Both the position numbers and the translations under genes were made by a program. This document shows positions 1,842 to 22,111 of a stretch of 64,000 bases of DNA, one piece after another; position 1 is the first letter of the stretch; each line of letters starts with the position of its first letter. Origin of the DNA: Alphaproteobacteria bacterium (GTDB lineage: Bacteria > Pseudomonadota > Alphaproteobacteria > Paracaedibacterales > VGCI01); the NCBI GenBank assembly GCA_019746225.1, contig JAIESE010000011.1, forward strand, positions 7-64,006. Direction: 5' to 3'. Below the pieces are notes generated by a model, which ran no database searches, was not told the origin of the DNA, and saw only the letters and a list, made by a program, of their open reading frames with translations.

Positions 1842-3587
1842 ATGCGTCGCTTTATTACGGGTATTTTTGCAACTCTAGGGGCATTTACCTTTATTTTTAT
1901 AGTAGCCTTTGGTTGGTCGGCCTACCTTGCCTCTTCTCCCACGATACCATCCGCATCCCCTACTGAAGCTATTGTTTTGAACCTATCCTTAGGCGATCGG
2001 CTCGCTGAACAACCCAGTAATCTCGGGATTTCTTCGCTTGTGCTGGGGCGTCCCCTTTCCGTTTACACAGTGGTTTCTGGTATCATTCAAGCTACCAAAG
2101 ATAAGAATGTTTCTGGGATTTTGCTAACCCTTGAAGGGAATGGTCTACAAATCGCAACCATTCAAGAAATTCGGGCGGCCCTCAAGAATTTTAAAGCGGC
2201 AGGAAAATTCATATACACCTATACGGATACATTTGGTGAGCTCTCTAATGCCACAAAAAGCTACTATCTTGCAGCAATATCCTCAAAAATTTGGGTGATG
2301 CCCATGGGTAGCTTTAACATCAATGGATTGTTCTTTGAAGCCCCATTTGCCAAGAAGGCCTTGGAAGACTTGAAAATTCGTCCCCAAGTTGGTCGCCGTG
2401 AGGAATACAAGGGATTTATTGAATCTTTGACAGAAAGTGACTTTACGGGCCCTCACAAAGAAAATATGCAGCGCATTCTAAATTCTCTTGCCGGCCAAAT
2501 TATTGCAGATGTGGCGGCTGATCGGGGATTAGAGATCGAGGAAGTCAAAGGCCTTATCAACACAGCCCCCCACACCCTCAAAGAAGCTTTGAAGACAAAA
2601 ATGATCGATGAGATCGGCTATAAAGACCAAGTCAAAGAGAGCATCGCCAAATTAACAGGCAAGAAACCAATCTACTATGACTTTGAAGCCTACGCCCAAG
2701 GTATCCCTGATTTTTCAAAAGGTGAGAAAATTGCCATTGTGTATGCCGAAGGAACAATTGCGCGTGGAAAAGCGGTCCAAAACCCTCTCATGGATGATGC
2801 AATGATTGATGCGGTTGAAGTTGCCAAAATCATACGTGAATCCGGTGAAAACAAAGACATTAAAGCAATTATCTTACGCATTGACTCAGGTGGAGGTAAT
2901 CCGATCGCCTCTGATTTAATTAACCGGGAAGTCAGTCGCTTGAAAACCAAAAAACCTGTGATCGCCTCTATGGCAGACGCTGCTGCTTCTGGTGGTTATT
3001 ATATTGCCAGCAATGCCCGAAAGATTGTTGCCCAACCTGCTACAATTACGGGGTCCATTGGAGTCTTTTCAGGTAAACTTGTCACCCAAGAATTTTGGGA
3101 TCATTATGGAGTGCACTGGGGTGATGTAAGCTATGGAACCAATGCAGCCATGTGGTCAACAAGTACAGTCTTTTCTGATGAGGGCAAGAAGAAATTTGAA
3201 CGACATTTAGATCATGTCTACACCACTTTCCAAGAACAGGTCGTCAAAGGTCGTGGCCTTGACCCTGAGAAAGTACACCAAATTGCCAAGGGACAAATCT
3301 GGACTGGTCTCGAGGCCAAAGAAAATGGCCTTGTTGATGCGATCGGTGGGCTCATGATGGCGATTGATATTGCAAAGAAGGAGGCTGGGATTGCCGCTGA
3401 TGCCCCCGTTACCCTTCTTCAACTCCCTGCCCCCAAATCATTTGTGGACGTGATGTTTGACCGGAATCGGAATACCGAGACCGCAATATTTGCCCGGTAT
3501 CCGACTTTACGTATGATTTTGAAACGCCTAGATGATATCTTCTCGACCCCAAGTGTTGAGATGAAAGTGAATCTGCCAAAACCATAA
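1842..3587 (+). CDS. sppA: signal peptide peptidase SppA (67K type, peptidase S49)
   Basis: 581 aa. N-terminal TM segment and two tandem S49-like halves. The DSGGGNP and AASGGYYIA motifs are characteristic of SppA. Confidence 0.85.
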   Translation: MRRFITGIFATLGAFTFIFIVAFGWSAYLASSPTIPSASPTEAIVLNLSLGDRLAEQPSNLGISSLVLGRPLSVYTVVSGIIQATKDKNVSGILLTLEGNGLQIATIQEIRAALKNFKAAGKFIYTYTDTFGELSNATKSYYLAAISSKIWVMPMGSFNINGLFFEAPFAKKALEDLKIRPQVGRREEYKGFIESLTESDFTGPHKENMQRILNSLAGQIIADVAADRGLEIEEVKGLINTAPHTLKEALKTKMIDEIGYKDQVKESIAKLTGKKPIYYDFEAYAQGIPDFSKGEKIAIVYAEGTIARGKAVQNPLMDDAMIDAVEVAKIIRESGENKDIKAIILRIDSGGGNPIASDLINREVSRLKTKKPVIASMADAAASGGYYIASNARKIVAQPATITGSIGVFSGKLVTQEFWDHYGVHWGDVSYGTNAAMWSTSTVFSDEGKKKFERHLDHVYTTFQEQVVKGRGLDPEKVHQIAKGQIWTGLEAKENGLVDAIGGLMMAIDIAKKEAGIAADAPVTLLQLPAPKSFVDVMFDRNRNTETAIFARYPTLRMILKRLDDIFSTPSVEMKVNLPKP

Positions 3588-3671
3588 GAGGAATCTGTTG
3601 ATTGGTTTGTCGACAAAAGCCAACAGGTCCTCTATGATTCATTAGATGAACACTGAATTTGGAGTGCCCAA

Positions 3672-4229
3672 ATGGCTCTTACCCCCTCTTTCATGATCCC
3701 CTTAGGAACGGTCGCGCCAGATTTTAAGCTCCTAAACCCCCTTACTAATAAAATTGACTCTCTTCAGGATCTAAAATCCCCAAAAGGGACCGTCGTCATG
3801 TTCATTTGTAATCACTGCCCGTTTGTGATACATGTCCTTCCTGAGCTGTTAAAGCTCACAAAATACTACGGTGAACAAGGGGTTTCCTTTATTGCCATCA
3901 GTTCAAACGATCCTGTCTCCCATCCCCAAGATGGACCATCCCACATGGCCGAGCTTGCCAAATCCCTCAATTTCACGTTTCCATATCTCTTTGATGACAC
4001 CCAAGAGGTCGCCAAAGCCTACGAAGCGACGTGCACGCCCGACTTCTTTGTGTTTGATGGCGCATTAAAATGTGTATACCGGGGACAACTGGACGATTCA
4101 CGTCCCAACAACGGCGTTCCGCTTAGCGGTCAAGACCTTCGTTCGGCCCTCGATGGTCTATTGTCGAGCAATCCGATTTCCCCAGAGCAAAAACCCAGCA
4201 TGGGATGCAATATAAAGTGGAAAAATTAG
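3672..4229 (+). CDS. thioredoxin-fold redoxin (AhpC/TSA-like thiol-disulfide oxidoreductase)
   Basis: 185 aa. CNHCPF redox motif in a thioredoxin-like context (VVMFICNHCPFV ... FIAISSND). Confidence 0.7.
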   Translation: MALTPSFMIPLGTVAPDFKLLNPLTNKIDSLQDLKSPKGTVVMFICNHCPFVIHVLPELLKLTKYYGEQGVSFIAISSNDPVSHPQDGPSHMAELAKSLNFTFPYLFDDTQEVAKAYEATCTPDFFVFDGALKCVYRGQLDDSRPNNGVPLSGQDLRSALDGLLSSNPISPEQKPSMGCNIKWKN

Positions 4230-4353
4230 CAGTTTTTCGAATTAATTTCTTGACATAAGCTGCCAATAACGTTAGACAAAATAGGTACGTGTCTTTTCAT
4301 GAACGTATCATGAGAAATATATATTGTCCTTTATTTTTGGGAAAGTGACCCCC

Positions 4354-4668
4354 ATGTTTGCAGTGATTAAAACCGGTGGTAAGCAATATACCGTCCACGA
4401 AAATGATGTTCTTTGGGTTGAGAAGCTCGAAGCAGAACCAGGTACTTCCATTGATTTAACCGACGTTTTAATGATCGGCGATGGTAAAAATGTAACCGTT
4501 GGCAAACCAACGATTGCTGGTGCTAAGATTAAAGCAACAGTCGTTGAGCAAATGCGTGACCGAAAGGTGATCATCTTTAAGAAGAAGCGTCGCCACAACT
4601 ATCGTCGCAAAAAAGGACATCGCCAACATTTGACTGTTTTGAAGATTGAGAAAATTGTAGCAGCGTAA
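4354..4668 (+). CDS. rplU: 50S ribosomal protein L21
   Basis: [14 protein letters not shown]... is the canonical L21 N-terminus. Start trimmed from the track's 4324 to the ATG at 4354. Confidence 0.95.
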
Positions 4669-4700
4669 TAGTCTGCTCCACAGGATATAGGAGATAAGTA

Positions 4701-4970
4701 ATGGCACAAAAAAAGGGTGGTGGTAGTACCAGCAACGGACGCGACTCAGAAGGTCGACGCCTTGGCGTTAAGAAATTTGGACAAGAACATGTTTTGGCTG
4801 GCAACATTATCGTTCGCCAACGGGGCACAAAATTCCATCCTGGCAAGAATGTTGGCATGGGTAAAGACCATACCTTGTTTGCCTTGATCGAAGGTGTAGT
4901 TGAATTCAAGCGCGGTCAAAAGGATCGCTCATTTGTATCTGTTCTACCCGCTTCATCTACAATCCATTAA
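4701..4970 (+). CDS. rpmA: 50S ribosomal protein L27
   Basis: [27 protein letters not shown]...[15 protein letters not shown] is the canonical L27 sequence. It lies directly after rplU. Confidence 0.95.
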
Positions 4971-4984
4971 ACTCTAAAACTCAA

Positions 4985-5019
4985 CCCCCAGGTTGATTTT
5001 TTAACCTGGGGGATTTCTT
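4985..5019 (+). terminator. Rho-independent terminator after rpmA
   Basis: Stem cccccaggtt / aacctggggg, loop gatttttt, tail atttctt. It ends 4 nt before the next start codon. Confidence 0.65.
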
Positions 5020-5022
5020 AAA

Positions 5023-5553
5023 ATGATTACCTTTCGAAAAGCAACTCTTCCCGATCTTCCCCTGCTCGATTCCTGGCTCCAAAAGCCTCATGTGAGAGAA
5101 TTTTGGGACAATAGTGAACGTCAATACACCAACATGAAAAACTATCTTGAAGGCACCAAACACATCCATGACTATTATATCGGGCTCATGGACGGGGCAC
5201 CCTACTGCCTCCTGTTAACATGCAATGAGACCATAGAACCAGATACCCCCCTTCCTTACCTCCCCTATCTCTCGAAAGACCGCAACATCCACTCCCTTGA
5301 TTTCATGATTGGGGAAGAGGCATATTTGAGCAAGGGCTTTGGTCCCCAAACATTGCAGGCGTTTTGCTTATACATACAACAGCATGATCCCTTAAGCACC
5401 CGCTTTATTATTGATCCCCAGAGCAACAACCCGCGCGCGATTCATGTGTATGAAAAGGCGGGTTTTCAAAAGGTGGGCACCTTTACTCCTGAGGAGGGAG
5501 AATTTGCCGGCATATTAACCCATATCATGGTGAAGGACTTGGAAATAAAATGA
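5023..5553 (+). CDS. GNAT acetyltransferase of the AAC(6')-Ib-like (Acetyltransf_8) type
   Basis: 176 aa. From memory, ITFRKATLPDLPLLDSWLQKPHVREFWD and IDPQSNNPRAIHVYEKAGFQKVG align with the AAC(6')-Ib motifs (LRLMTEHDLAMLYEWLNRSHIVEWW; DPSPSNLRAIRCYEKAGFERQG). The substrate is not established. Confidence 0.7.
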   Translation: MITFRKATLPDLPLLDSWLQKPHVREFWDNSERQYTNMKNYLEGTKHIHDYYIGLMDGAPYCLLLTCNETIEPDTPLPYLPYLSKDRNIHSLDFMIGEEAYLSKGFGPQTLQAFCLYIQQHDPLSTRFIIDPQSNNPRAIHVYEKAGFQKVGTFTPEEGEFAGILTHIMVKDLEIK

Positions 5554-6398
5554 AAAATAAGTTATACAACATCTTTGTTTTGATACTGATCGCAGCCGCT
5601 TTCAATTTCTCCCACGGCGCTGAAGGTACGCAGCCGCATTCTGGCCTTGTCGTGAAAAGAAACCATGAGATTATCCTGAACATCGGAAAGACTAAAGAGC
5701 GTCACGCCCCCTTTTCCACCTTTAAAGTTCCCCTAGCCCTTATGGGGTTTGATGCAAAAATCTTAGAATCGAAAGATTCCCCAAAATGGGCCTTTCGGGA
5801 AGAATATGAGAAGAATTTCCAAAGCTGGTACACTCGGGAAAAGGGGTTGGAATATCATTGGTGTGAAGACCACACTCCCCTAACGTTCATGAAAAACTCA
5901 GTTGTTTGGTATTCCCATCTCATTACACAAAAGCTGGGAAAAGAGAAGTTCGAGGATTATGTCTCAAGGCTCAACTATGGAAATGGCAATGTTTCGGGAA
6001 CACCTGGAAAGGACGACGGTCTCTTCAACAGTTGGCTCGGGACTTCTCTCGAAATCTCTCCCATAGAGCAGGTTGAGTTCCTTGAAAAGCTTCTCGCTAA
6101 CGAGCTTCCGTTCTCCAAGGACGCCATGGAAAAGACAAGAGAGATTATGGATCGCGACGAGGCCTGGGATGGCTGGAAGCTATACGGTAAAACAGGTGGT
6201 GGCAGCGGGGGCAATGGATGGTTTATTGGATGGATTGAAAAGGACGGAGAACGGCTCGTCTTTGCTCAATACCTTGATAAAGCAGACCCAGGTCTTGATT
6301 TGACGGGACTGCCTGTTCATAAATCCGTTGGCCTCACTGCCAAGGAAATAATCAAACGAGACGTCTTGAAATATTTGGGCGTATCGGGGGAGAAATAG
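5550..6398 (+). CDS. class D (OXA-type) beta-lactamase-like protein
   Basis: 282 aa with a signal peptide. All class D boxes are present in order: STFK (PFSTFKVPLAL), SxV (NSVVWYS), YGN (LNYGNGN), KTG (YGKTGGG) and the WFIGWIE box. The start overlaps the upstream stop (ATGA). Confidence 0.85.
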   Translation: MKNKLYNIFVLILIAAAFNFSHGAEGTQPHSGLVVKRNHEIILNIGKTKERHAPFSTFKVPLALMGFDAKILESKDSPKWAFREEYEKNFQSWYTREKGLEYHWCEDHTPLTFMKNSVVWYSHLITQKLGKEKFEDYVSRLNYGNGNVSGTPGKDDGLFNSWLGTSLEISPIEQVEFLEKLLANELPFSKDAMEKTREIMDRDEAWDGWKLYGKTGGGSGGNGWFIGWIEKDGERLVFAQYLDKADPGLDLTGLPVHKSVGLTAKEIIKRDVLKYLGVSGEK

Positions 6399-6413
6399 AG
6401 GCGTCTGAAGACA

Positions 6414-6447
6414 CAAAAAAACCGGGGAAAACCCCGGTTTCTTCTAA
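6414..6447. terminator. bidirectional Rho-independent terminator between convergent genes
   Basis: An A-run precedes the stem aaccgggg / ccccggtt (loop aaaa), and T-rich tttcttct follows. It sits between the beta-lactamase-like gene (+) and rpmG (-). Confidence 0.75.
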
Positions 6448-6463
6448 AACAAATATTACTGTC

Positions 6464-6631
6464 TTATTTAATCTTCGTCTCTTTAAACAAGACGTGCTTA
6501 CGAACCACTGGATCATATTTGCGAAACTCAAACTTCTCAGGCTTCTTTCGTGGATTTTTTGAAGCCACATAAAAATATCCCGTATCCGCTGTGCTGAGCA
6601 TCTTAATTGCGATCGTTGCTGCTTTAGCCAT
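6464..6631 (-). CDS. rpmG: 50S ribosomal protein L33
   Basis: Not in the ORF track (55 aa). My manual reverse-complement translation is [55 protein letters not shown], a canonical L33. AAGGAG sits 8 nt upstream of the ATG. Confidence 0.9.
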
Positions 6632-6682
6632 AATTTATACTCCTTTAAATAAGTGTGGATCTGGGATCCACACCACAATATC

Positions 6683-7192
6683 TTAACGTTTAGAGAACTG
6701 GAAGCGACGACGAGCTTTGCGTTGACCATACTTCTTACGTTCAACAACACGACTGTCACGCGTCAGGAAGCCTTCATGCTTCAAGACAGGACGTAAATCC
6801 GGCTCAAAGTATGTTAAGGCCTTGCTGATGCCATGACGAACCGCACCGGCTTGACCGGACAATCCACCACCAACAACCGTACACCAAACATCAAACTGAC
6901 CGCTGCGATTGGCAACCTGCATGGGTTGAGCAAGCATCATCTGTAAAACAGGACGTGCAAAATATTGGGCACTTCCTTTTCCATTCACAACAATTTGACC
7001 TTTACCTGGTTTAATCCAAACACGGGCAATGGCGTTTTTACGCTTTCCCGTTGCATAGGAGCGCCCTTGGGCATCAATCTTTGGGAGAACTGGTTCACTT
7101 GGATTCGCGTCTGCACTCTTTGCAGTCGCAGCTGTCGGTGTTTCATTAACAGCCGTTTTCAAATCTTCTAAAGCAATTTTTTCACGTGCCAC
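6683..7192 (-). CDS. rpsI: 30S ribosomal protein S9
   Basis: 169 aa, ending ...[12 protein letters not shown]. It has an N-terminal extension before the conserved [11 protein letters not shown] core and lies downstream of rplM. Confidence 0.95.
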
Positions 7193-7194
7193 GA

Positions 7195-7659
7195 TTATAT
7201 ACTCCTTTTATTCTTAGGATTCAGGGCCGCAACATCTAAGTTCTCAGGGTTTTGACCAGCGTGAGGATGGGCTGCACCTGCATAAACTTTCAAATTTCCC
7301 ATAATTTGACGCCCGAGAGGGCCACGAGGAATCATCCGCTCAACGGCTTTTTCAATGACGCGCTCTGGGTGCTTTCCTTCAAGAATCGTCCCAACAGCGC
7401 GCTCTTTAATACCTCCAGGATATCCTGTGTGCCAGTAGAACTTCTTGTCTTTGAGTTTATTGCCCGTCAGCTTCACTTTTTCTGCGTTGACGATCACAAC
7501 ATTGTCGCCGCAATCTACGTGAGGCGTAAACGTAGGCTTGTTTTTCCCACGCAAAATGTTCGCAACGACCACGGCGAGGCGACCCAAAATGAGGTCTTGC
7601 GCATCAATGAGAAGCCACTTCTTCTTCACATCTGCTGGTTTTATGGAGATTGTCTTCAT
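7195..7659 (-). CDS. rplM: 50S ribosomal protein L13
   Basis: 154 aa. [18 protein letters not shown]...YWHTGYPGG is the canonical L13 sequence. Confidence 0.95.
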
Positions 7660-7818
7660 TTAATTTCTGTCCATTTTATTAACACATTGATTATGGTTTA
7701 GGACATTTAAGGTGTCAGGTCAAGCGTAAAATGCTTTGTTTTCATGGTTTTTTGGACAATGGTATTATAGTACCATAAATATCTGGTCTCTCAATATATT
7801 CTGAAAATTGGGTCTTTT

Positions 7819-7856
7819 GGGACGCGAACAATCTTAATGTAAGATTCACGCGTCCC
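7819..7856 (-). terminator. nested stem-loop downstream of the 1108-aa gene (possible non-canonical terminator)
   Basis: Outer stem gggacgcg ... cgcgtccc encloses an inner stem aatctta / taagatt. There is no U-run on either strand, so the function is uncertain. Confidence 0.35.
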
Positions 7857-7882
7857 TAAATTCACATTGTCCGCTATATTTA

Positions 7883-21283: not shown

Positions 21284-22111
21284 ATGAACAAACATATCGC
21301 CCATATTTTCTCTTATACTTTTCTATTGGCCAGCCCTTTAATGGCAATGGAAGAACCAATAGATGTTCCAGACTCAGACAAAATCAGCATCACTGGGCTC
21401 AAGAGAGAACATGTTGTTCAAGCCCTTTGGGTCAACGCTTCCGGAACAGGGAATGCAGAGATTGCCCGAGCCTATATGCCAACAGCAACCTTCCCGCTGC
21501 CAACGCAAGAAGAGGCAAGACAATTCTCAAGCAAGTCAACCGGAAGTTACTTTATGGGACGAAAAATGCCCATCGCTTTTGGAGAAGATTCCTTTGGTGG
21601 GTACGGATATAATATGAACCACGGTCCCAATCGCGCCCAAAAAGTCATCGAAGCTTTAAGGATATTAGCTGAAAAAGGAGATGTTACGGAAGCTGCCCTT
21701 AAAAAACTCTACGTACCTGTATTGGATGAAGTCCTTAAAATTGAATGGGCGAAAATGAATGCCCTAATTGCTAAGGGGGAGATGGAAAGGACGTTTCCAA
21801 TGCATACGAATCTCACGGCTATAAAGGATGCGGACTGTGTCGGCCTCACCATGGCGATGGATCTTAATGGCGAACAAACGAAGGGAGCCCAAGAATTTGC
21901 TAAAGGATTAGCAGGACATTACATGGGCAGAGGCACAAATACAACCCAAACGCCTGCTCCCACACCAACGACAACGCCCCCTCCTCCTTCAACCAAGGAA
22001 GATGCCGTTTCCACACCACCTTTATCGAATAAATTTGAGGAGGATATGAAAGCTGGCCTCCAAGGCATGTTTGGGGGAAAAAGCGAAAAGAAGAAAAATA
22101 TTAAGAAATAG
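21284..22111 (+). CDS. orphan secreted protein with Pro/Thr-rich linker and basic tail (hypothetical)
   Basis: 275 aa. Leader MNKHIAHIFSYTFLLASPLMA|MEEP. C-terminal TQTPAPTPTTTPPPPST linker and a KSEKKKNIKK tail. Inserted in the dcw cluster in the opposite orientation. Confidence 0.7.
   Translation: MNKHIAHIFSYTFLLASPLMAMEEPIDVPDSDKISITGLKREHVVQALWVNASGTGNAEIARAYMPTATFPLPTQEEARQFSSKSTGSYFMGRKMPIAFGEDSFGGYGYNMNHGPNRAQKVIEALRILAEKGDVTEAALKKLYVPVLDEVLKIEWAKMNALIAKGEMERTFPMHTNLTAIKDADCVGLTMAMDLNGEQTKGAQEFAKGLAGHYMGRGTNTTQTPAPTPTTTPPPPSTKEDAVSTPPLSNKFEEDMKAGLQGMFGGKSEKKKNIKK

Follow-up and report, generated by a model that had tools for sequence, protein, structure and literature searches.

A predicted class D beta-lactamase gene overlapping an AAC(6')-like acetyltransferase gene between two ribosomal protein operons of an alphaproteobacterium

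The gene pair and its closest described relatives

In the clinical integron/IS26 array aac(6')-Ib-cr - blaOXA-1 (- catB3), a gene for an AAC(6')-type acetyltransferase precedes a gene of the OXA-1-like branch of class D beta-lactamases. The cassette genes of clinical integrons are promoterless and rely on an upstream promoter. Here, we characterized two genes in the same order at positions 5,023-6,398 of a 64,000-nt stretch (the window; positions 7-64,006 of contig JAIESE010000011.1, assembly GCA_019746225.1) from an alphaproteobacterium of the Paracaedibacterales: a gene for a GNAT acetyltransferase and, overlapping its stop codon, a gene for an OXA-like protein. Like the integron genes, the pair appears to be promoterless. 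However, the clinical genes are separate attC cassettes on mobile elements, 342 nt apart in the example that we fetched, whereas the window pair overlaps by 4 nt and is chromosomal. An integron cassette array was rejected as a description of the locus: the 4-nt overlap excludes an attC site between the genes, the only hairpins are backbone terminators, and the neighbors are ribosomal protein genes. Positions 4600-6800, searched for direct repeats, inverted repeats and structures resembling attC, yielded nothing but the two terminators. The description in an earlier note on this DNA, of a chromosomal, overlapping pair without cassette boundaries, is upheld by the lack of attC sites, flanking repeats and an integrase at the locus. 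We consider it reasonably probable that the pair is a lineage-specific, promoterless accessory operon of the chromosome that would encode an exported class D enzyme and an acetyltransferase of the AAC(6') lineage, lodged in a slot between two terminators.

The second gene product most resembles the chromosomal class D "alt" branch, which includes OXA-1/OXA-9/OXA-18/OXA-45-like enzymes, Lpg1618 of Legionella, the Agrobacterium enzymes 6NHU and 6V6N, and the blaD product of amoeba symbionts. Shared features are the fold (target TM-score up to 0.88), the motifs STFK, SxV, YGN, KTG and GWFxGW, the Trp of a long omega loop, a signal peptide, a chromosomal single-domain organization and occurrence in protist-associated bacteria. 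In the window protein, motif I is S56-T-F-K59 (nt 5715-5726), followed by S117-V-V (nt 5898-5906), Y143-G-N (nt 5976-5984), the omega-loop W162 (nt 6033-6035) and K214-T-G (nt 6189-6197) with a G-W224-F-I-G-W228 box after it, and all class D boxes are invariant over 36 family members of 42-92% identity. The N-terminus, MKNKLYNIFVLILIAAAFNFSHG|AEG, is K-rich and then hydrophobic with a putative SHG|A cleavage site; read by eye, it looks like a typical Sec signal peptide of about residues 1-23 (nt 5550-5618). The remainder is a single domain (Pfam Transpeptidase, 129 bits), with no fused BlaR1/MecR1 membrane protease. An AlphaFold model (predicted local distance difference test [pLDDT] score, 91.5) matched Lpg1618, OXA-45, the Agrobacterium class D enzyme, OXA-57, OXA-427 and OXA-1 best (target TM-score 0.81-0.88), and the best 50 Foldseek matches were all class D enzymes (0.74-0.88). 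A literature search on Lpg1618 found nothing. In contrast to these likenesses, identity to solved class D relatives is only 33-39% by structure-based alignment, and the window gene is joined to an upstream GNAT gene by an ATGA overlap, whereas its homologs are stand-alone genes. The identical protein is named class D beta-lactamase at NCBI. By motifs, modeled fold and clade, the second gene is classed as a class D beta-lactamase gene, as the earlier note had proposed, and its product is predicted to hydrolyze beta-lactams.

The first gene product belongs to Pfam Acetyltransf_8 (PF13523; 77.3 bits vs. a threshold of 27). The structures nearest to its AlphaFold model (pLDDT 92) are AAC(6')-Ib, -Im and -Ie and a Legionella AAC(6') (PDB 3F5B), with TM-scores of 0.73-0.79, and a family-profile search ranked the same proteins first. 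The closest solved AAC(6') sequences are 23-27% identical to it. With these enzymes, to which its overall identity is 23-30%, the GNAT protein shares a similar length, an acidic isoelectric point (5.4) and the motifs W..xH..E(F/W)W, D-x-x-I/L and (I/T)DP..N.RAI..YEKAGF. Unlike AAC(6')-Ib/Im/Ie, it carries an invariant EFWDN motif of its own. Equivalents of Asp115, Asp152, Asp100, Trp49 and Tyr65 of AAC(6')-Ib were present in a HMMER pairwise alignment, where D93 stands at the position of the catalytic Asp115; the equivalents of Asp115, Asp152 and Trp49 are conserved. The GNAT protein is, on sequence and model, AAC(6')-like in architecture.

Both reading frames are real genes and not chance open reading frames (ORFs), since their homologs reach E-values of 1e-119 to 1e-191 and their Pfam scores are 77 and 129 bits. 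No second copy of either gene was found within the 64-kb window. The ORF coordinates and the four-base overlap are exactly as the earlier note had them (Table 1), and its placement of the pair between ribosomal protein operons holds, with the refinement that rpmG is the immediate downstream neighbor, before rpsI and rplM. The rpmG gene was recognized from its translation and from the identical gene of locus L169 (window coordinate = L169 coordinate + 700). The pair leaves 10 nt to the hairpin on its left and 17 nt to that on its right. The left hairpin, CCCCCAGGTTGA-TTTT-TTAACCTGGGGG, has a folding energy of -22.8 kcal/mol (z = -3.7); the right one, of -19.5 kcal/mol (z = -4.1). The GNAT start codon lies 10 nt past the stem and 3 nt past the T-rich tract of the left hairpin, and the only purine-rich, Shine-Dalgarno (SD)-like stretch available to it, GGGGA at 5009-5013, sits in the right arm of that hairpin, which confirms another observation of the earlier note.

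Table 1. Features of the locus, in window coordinates.
Feature	Position	Strand	Basis
rplU (ribosomal protein L21), which opens the upstream operon	4354-4668	+	ORF list; Pfam Ribosomal_L21p on the identical L169 gene
rpmA (ribosomal protein L27), stop codon TAA at 4968-4970	4701-4970	+	ORF list; identical gene in L169
rpmA intrinsic terminator, 12-bp stem and 4-nt loop (4985-5012) plus ATTTCTT tail	4985-5019	+	Folding
GNAT N-acetyltransferase gene (Acetyltransf_8), 176 aa, predicted cytoplasmic product	5023-5553	+	Pfam, NCBIfam, homologs, model
ATGA stop/start overlap, a signature of translational coupling	5550-5553	+	ORF list; same in L002
Homolog of OXA-type class D serine beta-lactamases, 282 aa	5550-6398	+	Pfam, NCBIfam, motifs, model, tree
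Bidirectional terminator hairpin AAAAAACCGGGG-AAAA-CCCCGGTTTCTT, common to the OXA-like gene and convergent rpmG	6416-6443	.	Folding
rpmG (ribosomal protein L33), which closes the convergent operon	6464-6631	-	Translation; Pfam Ribosomal_L33 on the identical L169 gene
rpsI	6683-7192	-	ORF list; convergent ribosomal protein operon
rplM	7195-7659	-	ORF list; convergent ribosomal protein operon

Distribution and assembly of the pair

Both proteins were compared by tblastn with 80 loci of GTDB species that carry OXA-like genes and with 80 JGI metagenome loci that carry relatives of the GNAT gene. The order rplU-rpmA-GNAT-OXA-rpmG/rpsI/rplM was seen only in the window's own species and on a wastewater contig (L002) with 90-92% identity at the protein level. 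An identical L27 is encoded on 22 contigs, and the 10 places shown share the arrangement wherever the contig continues past rpmA. A GNAT gene adjacent to and upstream of an OXA-like gene occurred at none of the 80 GTDB loci; at L087, a GNAT gene lies 2 kb downstream of the OXA-like gene, and at L081, one lies on the opposite strand at a distance of 3.6 kb. Conversely, neither an OXA-like gene nor rpmA flanked the GNAT relative at any of the 80 metagenome loci. As judged from gene order in these surveys, the GNAT and OXA-like genes were paired once, in one lineage, and do not recur as a unit.

Among named organisms, Candidatus Paracaedibacter symbiosus has the closest relative of the OXA-like protein (65% identity), and its gene stands alone beside priA; in another lineage, a homolog stands alone beside atpF. 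More distant relatives occur in Odyssella, Midichloriaceae, Jidaibacter, Megaira, Caedibacter, Berkiella and Legionella, as well as in Chlamydiales, Simkaniaceae, Babeliales, Agrobacterium and Xanthobacter. In a neighbor-joining tree, the window protein nested among P. symbiosus and alphaproteobacterial metagenome-assembled genomes, with OXA-1 as a far outgroup. The host is an uncultured, amoeba-symbiont-like alphaproteobacterium of Paracaedibacter-like, Holosporales type, probably associated with protists. One protein from a metagenome-assembled genome labeled Chlamydiales (L015, JBGSSB010000154.1, 2503-3219) is 54% identical and falls inside the alphaproteobacterial clade of the tree; its placement reflects either transfer across phyla among protist-associated bacteria or a binning error. 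Wang and Wu (2017; PMC5751055) have listed a class D beta-lactamase among the genes that amoeba symbionts exchange laterally, and the general message of the present finding is, to that extent, not new.

Relatives of the GNAT gene lie in operons with mixed small-molecule enzymes, namely other GNATs, NUDIX, APH and glyoxalase/bleomycin-type proteins, and further close relatives (P0124-P0126) are 49-51% identical to the window protein. One relative, at L006 (4921-6947), shows a different, "detox-like" context for the family: the order is NUDIX - Acetyltransf_1 GNAT - Acetyltransf_8 GNAT (52% identity) - glyoxalase/bleomycin-resistance-type gene, in a tight operon in which the GNAT relative overlaps the downstream gene by 4 nt.

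The slot occupied by the pair is older than the pair. Relatives whose L21 is 88-91% identical keep the backbone fabI-sppA-rplU-rpmA-(X)-rpmG-rpsI-rplM-ftsZ, where X is a gene for a hypothetical protein of 152 aa on the other strand (L178-L180) or of 186 aa (L186), and none of these backbone-sharing relatives has a GNAT gene in the slot. In relatives with a changed downstream backbone, rpmA is followed by an IS200-type transposase gene (L185) or by other genes (L181-L184). The rpmA hairpin is also present in L179, which has no GNAT-OXA pair, and the rpmG hairpin is retained in L002, L179 and L186; since they are shared with relatives lacking the pair, both terminators predate the insert. The rpmA hairpin of L002 is conserved with compensatory shortening. 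Stem energies are -22.8 kcal/mol in the window, -15.4 in L002 and -15.3 in the insert-free L179; the window stem is the strongest of the three, so that a weakening of the terminator in favor of downstream expression is not indicated. In the slot of L179 (4585-4665) and L186 (4545-4625), a repeat of ~70 nt (...CCAAGCTTTGCTTGGAAGCGAGGCTTATTATCTGGAATCCAGG...) lies in opposite orientations, which suggests an element resembling a miniature inverted-repeat transposable element or a repetitive extragenic palindrome; a search of the window for this repeat found no copy.

The guanine-plus-cytosine (GC) content of the pair (0.45-0.47) equals that of its neighbors and gives no signal of foreign composition. 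Relative to L002, the ratio of nonsynonymous to synonymous divergence (dN/dS) is 0.16 for the GNAT gene and 0.125 for the OXA-like gene, which indicates that the pair is under purifying selection. Synonymous divergence (dS) is 0.29-0.32 for the pair and 0.26-0.31 for the flanking rpsI and rplM (rplU was left out because of a length difference of one codon), and because these values match, the pair has diverged in step with the backbone ever since the window lineage and L002 separated.

A GNAT gene downstream of rpmA has precedents in alphaproteobacteria. In Paracoccus and Sphingomonas, the order rplU-rpmA-GNAT occurs on one strand, with a GNAT of ~180 aa, and the general arrangement rplU-rpmA-GNAT(-obgE) shares with the window a GNAT gene directly downstream of rpmA. 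However, the GNAT of that arrangement is a RimJ/RimL-like Acetyltransf_3 protein, and no obgE follows in the window. BLASTP comparison of the Paracoccus and Sphingomonas proteins with the window GNAT gave 22-24% identity over 63-68 aa (E = 0.001-0.02), and an orthologous relationship to the canonical post-rpmA GNAT was rejected on that score and on the different dominant Pfam family. The caveat in the earlier note that a GNAT gene after rpmA is common in alphaproteobacteria was thus correct as far as these two genera go, but it concerns a different subfamily and is mostly beside the point.

A closer parallel exists at L187 (1758-3519), where the order is rplU-rpmA-terminator-arfB-like-GNAT, without a beta-lactamase gene. 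There, L21 is 78% identical to that of the window, and the arfB-like product is a 140-aa RF-1 domain protein with a GGQ motif; in this one lineage, the GNAT family is linked with a gene for ribosome rescue. Since the L187 GNAT, which is 63% identical to the window GNAT, is also downstream of rplU-rpmA, the position of the GNAT gene may be older than that of the OXA-like gene, and the GNAT gene may have stood downstream of rpmA before the OXA-like gene joined it. Relative to its L187 ortholog, the window GNAT has three extra C-terminal residues (EIK), and the bases that encode them resemble the 5' leader of stand-alone OXA homologs (ggaaataaaATGAAAAA in the window vs. gaagataaaATGAAAAA in P. 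symbiosus). This extension is consistent with a later arrival of the OXA-like gene. On the Candidatus Megaera polyxenophila chromosome (L037, 4181-5684), a divergently oriented OXA-like gene of ~40% identity adjoins rplU-rpmA; here a class D gene has come to lie beside these ribosomal protein genes for a second time, independently and probably by coincidence.

Expression and competing explanations

Because both terminators predate the insert, and because the 10 nt between the hairpin and the GNAT start codon leave no room for a separate promoter, the pair is most likely transcribed by read-through from rplU-rpmA. A sigma-70 consensus scan found no promoter-like site on the + strand between 3638 and 6607, although this is a weak negative, since so crude a scan does not detect the rplU promoter either. 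The proposal of the earlier note that expression would rely on read-through at the rpmA terminator agrees with this anatomy and with the outcome of the scan, and we infer it on those grounds. An E-value-based Rfam scan of positions 3500-8000 returned two sub-threshold chance matches only, and the idea that a described riboswitch or RNA leader precedes the GNAT gene was rejected. The OXA-like gene has a weak GGAA of its own 7 nt upstream of its start codon, and its translation may be coupled to that of the GNAT gene through the ATGA overlap, which is retained in the 92%-identical relative L002.

The sequence of events that we envisage is as follows. An OXA-like gene, from a clade that would be native to the bacterial family and occupies different chromosomal sites in different lineages, would have been linked in this lineage to the very 3' end of the GNAT gene, creating the ATGA overlap. 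Read-through of the rplU-rpmA terminator would then provide low, constitutive transcription of both genes, and the OXA-like gene would be translated either by coupling to the GNAT stop codon or by initiation immediately after it. The OXA-like protein would be exported by the Sec pathway to the periplasm, where Ser56 would act as the nucleophile and Lys59, presumably carboxylated, would be buttressed by Trp162. Hydrolysis of beta-lactams by this enzyme would shield the peptidoglycan machinery of the organism; a dcw cluster with ftsI lies on the minus strand 5-27 kb from the pair (11442-33220). The GNAT protein, of the Acetyltransf_8 / AAC(6')-Ib-Im-Ie lineage, would remain in the cytoplasm and use acetyl-CoA, most likely to N-acetylate an aminoglycoside-like amine.

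A number of results weigh against an accessory operon of this kind. All 12 NCBIfam matches of the GNAT protein are AAC(6') families, in favor of the assigned lineage, but they score 41-57 bits against cut-offs of 250-450 (AAC_6p_set_A, 56.7 vs. 280; TIGR04431, 55.1 vs. 260; AAC_6p_Ib, 48.1 vs. 400; AAC_6p_Ie_fam, 49.1 vs. 340). The AAC(6')-Ib contact residues E73, Q91, Y93, W102 and W103 are replaced in it, as judged by HMMER pairwise alignment in a loop of lower model confidence. Fold and core motifs bear out the term "AAC(6')-Ib-like" used in the earlier note, whereas membership of the family is not supported by the scores, and the protein is not to be classed as an AAC(6'). Its low identity to these enzymes and its scores far under every curated AAC(6') threshold leave its substrate a matter of prediction. 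In addition, its closest relative beyond L002 is the GNAT of L187, beside the ribosome-rescue gene, which hints that its role may be linked to translation and not to resistance. It is conceivable, then, that the GNAT protein is a translation- or ribosome-linked, or housekeeping, acetyltransferase in a post-rpmA "GNAT slot" and that its junction with a beta-lactamase gene is incidental, as the Paracoccus and Sphingomonas gene orders would also suggest. We regard this as unlikely, though as the most serious of the alternatives. The usual GNAT after rpmA is of the Acetyltransf_3 subfamily and resembles the window protein at 22-24% identity over only ~65 aa; the slot is without a GNAT gene in backbone-sharing relatives, and rpmA was absent from the flanks of all 80 metagenome GNAT loci; the operon neighbors of GNAT relatives have a flavor of small-molecule detoxification; and all of the closest solved structures are AAC(6') enzymes.

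The OXA-like protein, too, falls short of curated thresholds: its top NCBIfam match, bla_class_D_alt, scored 223.2 bits (cut-off 280), bla_class_D_main scored 141.4 (cut-off 250), and every named OXA family was well below its cut-off, the best being OXA-18-like (175 vs. 540), bearing in mind that these equivalog cut-offs are operational and not mechanistic thresholds. Alignment of the OXA-like protein with the nearest solved sequence shows 12 inserted residues between motifs I and II and a loop after KTG that is 11 residues shorter, and both of these altered loops line the active site. Together with matches to the BlaR1 and MecR1 sensor domains (111 and 78 bits), the clade-specific nature of the loop changes near the active site, and the conservation of the family in obligate intracellular bacteria whose exposure to beta-lactams is uncertain, these results could be explained by a beta-lactam-binding, sensor-like or peptidoglycan-related periplasmic protein with a class D/BlaR1 fold and no hydrolase activity. 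Such a protein is improbable, given that the window product is soluble and secreted, with no transmembrane or metalloprotease domain, that the class D model doubles the score of the BlaR1 model (223 vs. 111 bits), that the clade shows no variation in any hydrolase motif or in the Trp that stabilizes the carboxylated Lys, and that the best structural matches are beta-lactamases, among them several characterized OXA types. With respect to expression, the weakness of the promoter scan counts against the proposed operon, as does the strength of the rpmA hairpin (-22.8 kcal/mol), which sequesters the SD-like GGGGA and argues for poor expression of the GNAT gene; low GNAT translation is therefore predicted. 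A strong hairpin and U-tract directly upstream, a sequestered SD-like sequence and the failure to find a promoter-like site could even mean that the genes are silent relics stranded behind a terminator. Of all the explanations considered, this is the least probable, since neither ORF is disrupted in either of two lineages that are ~8-9% apart at the nucleotide level, the dN/dS values are 0.13-0.16, and nothing of the catalytic motifs or of the ATGA overlap has been lost.

There is little more to be said for a recently acquired mobile resistance unit, such as a cassette array or transposon remnant, that served as the source of clinical aac(6')-Ib-blaOXA arrays. The gene order is that of aac(6')-Ib-cr followed by blaOXA-1, the pair is promoterless and compact like cassettes, and an IS200-type transposase gene follows rpmA in one relative. 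We nevertheless hold this origin to be very improbable. The genes overlap, and they lack attC sites and flanking direct or inverted repeats; their GC content and dS equal those of their neighbors and of the flanking ribosomal protein genes, respectively; and the OXA-like protein nests in the clade of the host family, while the best plasmid-borne relatives are OXA-1 (38% identity) and AAC(6')-Ib (30%). Since the closest plasmid genes are this distant, there is no direct reservoir link, and the suggestion in the earlier note of an environmental reservoir, taken as the progenitor of clinical aac(6')-Ib/blaOXA arrays, fails. By sequence comparison, the window pair is an analog of the clinical array that arose independently and is not its progenitor, and it points to no source of the clinical aac(6')-Ib or blaOXA genes.

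A further proposal concerns the junction between rpmA and the GNAT gene. Aminoglycosides provoke stop-codon read-through errors. The rpmA frame is open for 16 codons past its stop codon (TAA, 4968-4970), through the whole hairpin, and ends with TAA at 5019-5021, 1 nt before the GNAT start codon (TAAAATG). In L002, where a 2-nt indel intervenes, the extended frame still runs for 15 open codons, and its stop codon overlaps the GNAT start codon as TAATG. If the rpmA terminator and the GNAT start formed an attenuator that senses translational fidelity, a ribosome reading through the rpmA stop codon would melt the hairpin, block termination, free the SD-like sequence and finish at the GNAT start, and the acetyltransferase/beta-lactamase pair would be switched on. 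We give this device only a slight chance of being real. It is seen in two related sequences only, and in-frame stops are common in the AT-rich region before the start codon; an early in-frame stop occurs in the more distant L187, and tandem TAATAA stops occur in L179, where the pair is absent.

The locus adds a divergent class D clade with two altered active-site loops and no characterized member, found in Paracaedibacter-like and other protist-associated bacteria, and an AAC(6')-related GNAT family. Promoterless accessory genes wedged between two ribosomal operon terminators could also serve as a simple model of read-through expression. The two genes are ordinary, divergent members of known enzyme kinds, and their architecture is a tidy but minor curiosity.

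Neighboring features of the window

Between rplM and ftsZ, an ORF of 1108 aa on the minus strand (7883-11209) has no Pfam match and a low GC content of 0.35-0.40, vs. ~0.45. In L179 and L186, ftsZ directly follows rplM and the ORF is missing. It looks like another lineage-specific insertion, and may possibly encode a symbiont effector-type protein. Beyond it, the dcw cluster (11442-33220, minus strand) is complete, with ftsZ, ftsA, ddl, murC, murG, ftsW, mraY, ftsI and others, and it is interrupted by two ORFs on the plus strand without a Pfam match, at 13418-14302 (294 aa; GC content 0.31-0.40) and 21284-22111 (275 aa).

Upstream of the ribosomal protein genes, a gene for an AhpC/TSA-family thiol peroxidase (3672-4229, plus strand) lies between sppA and rplU. 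It is absent from that position in the backbone-sharing loci L178, L183 and L186, and is present in L002, with 88% amino acid identity and a dN/dS of 0.06. A promoter-like site, TCGACA-17-TATGAT, precedes it at 3610-3638.

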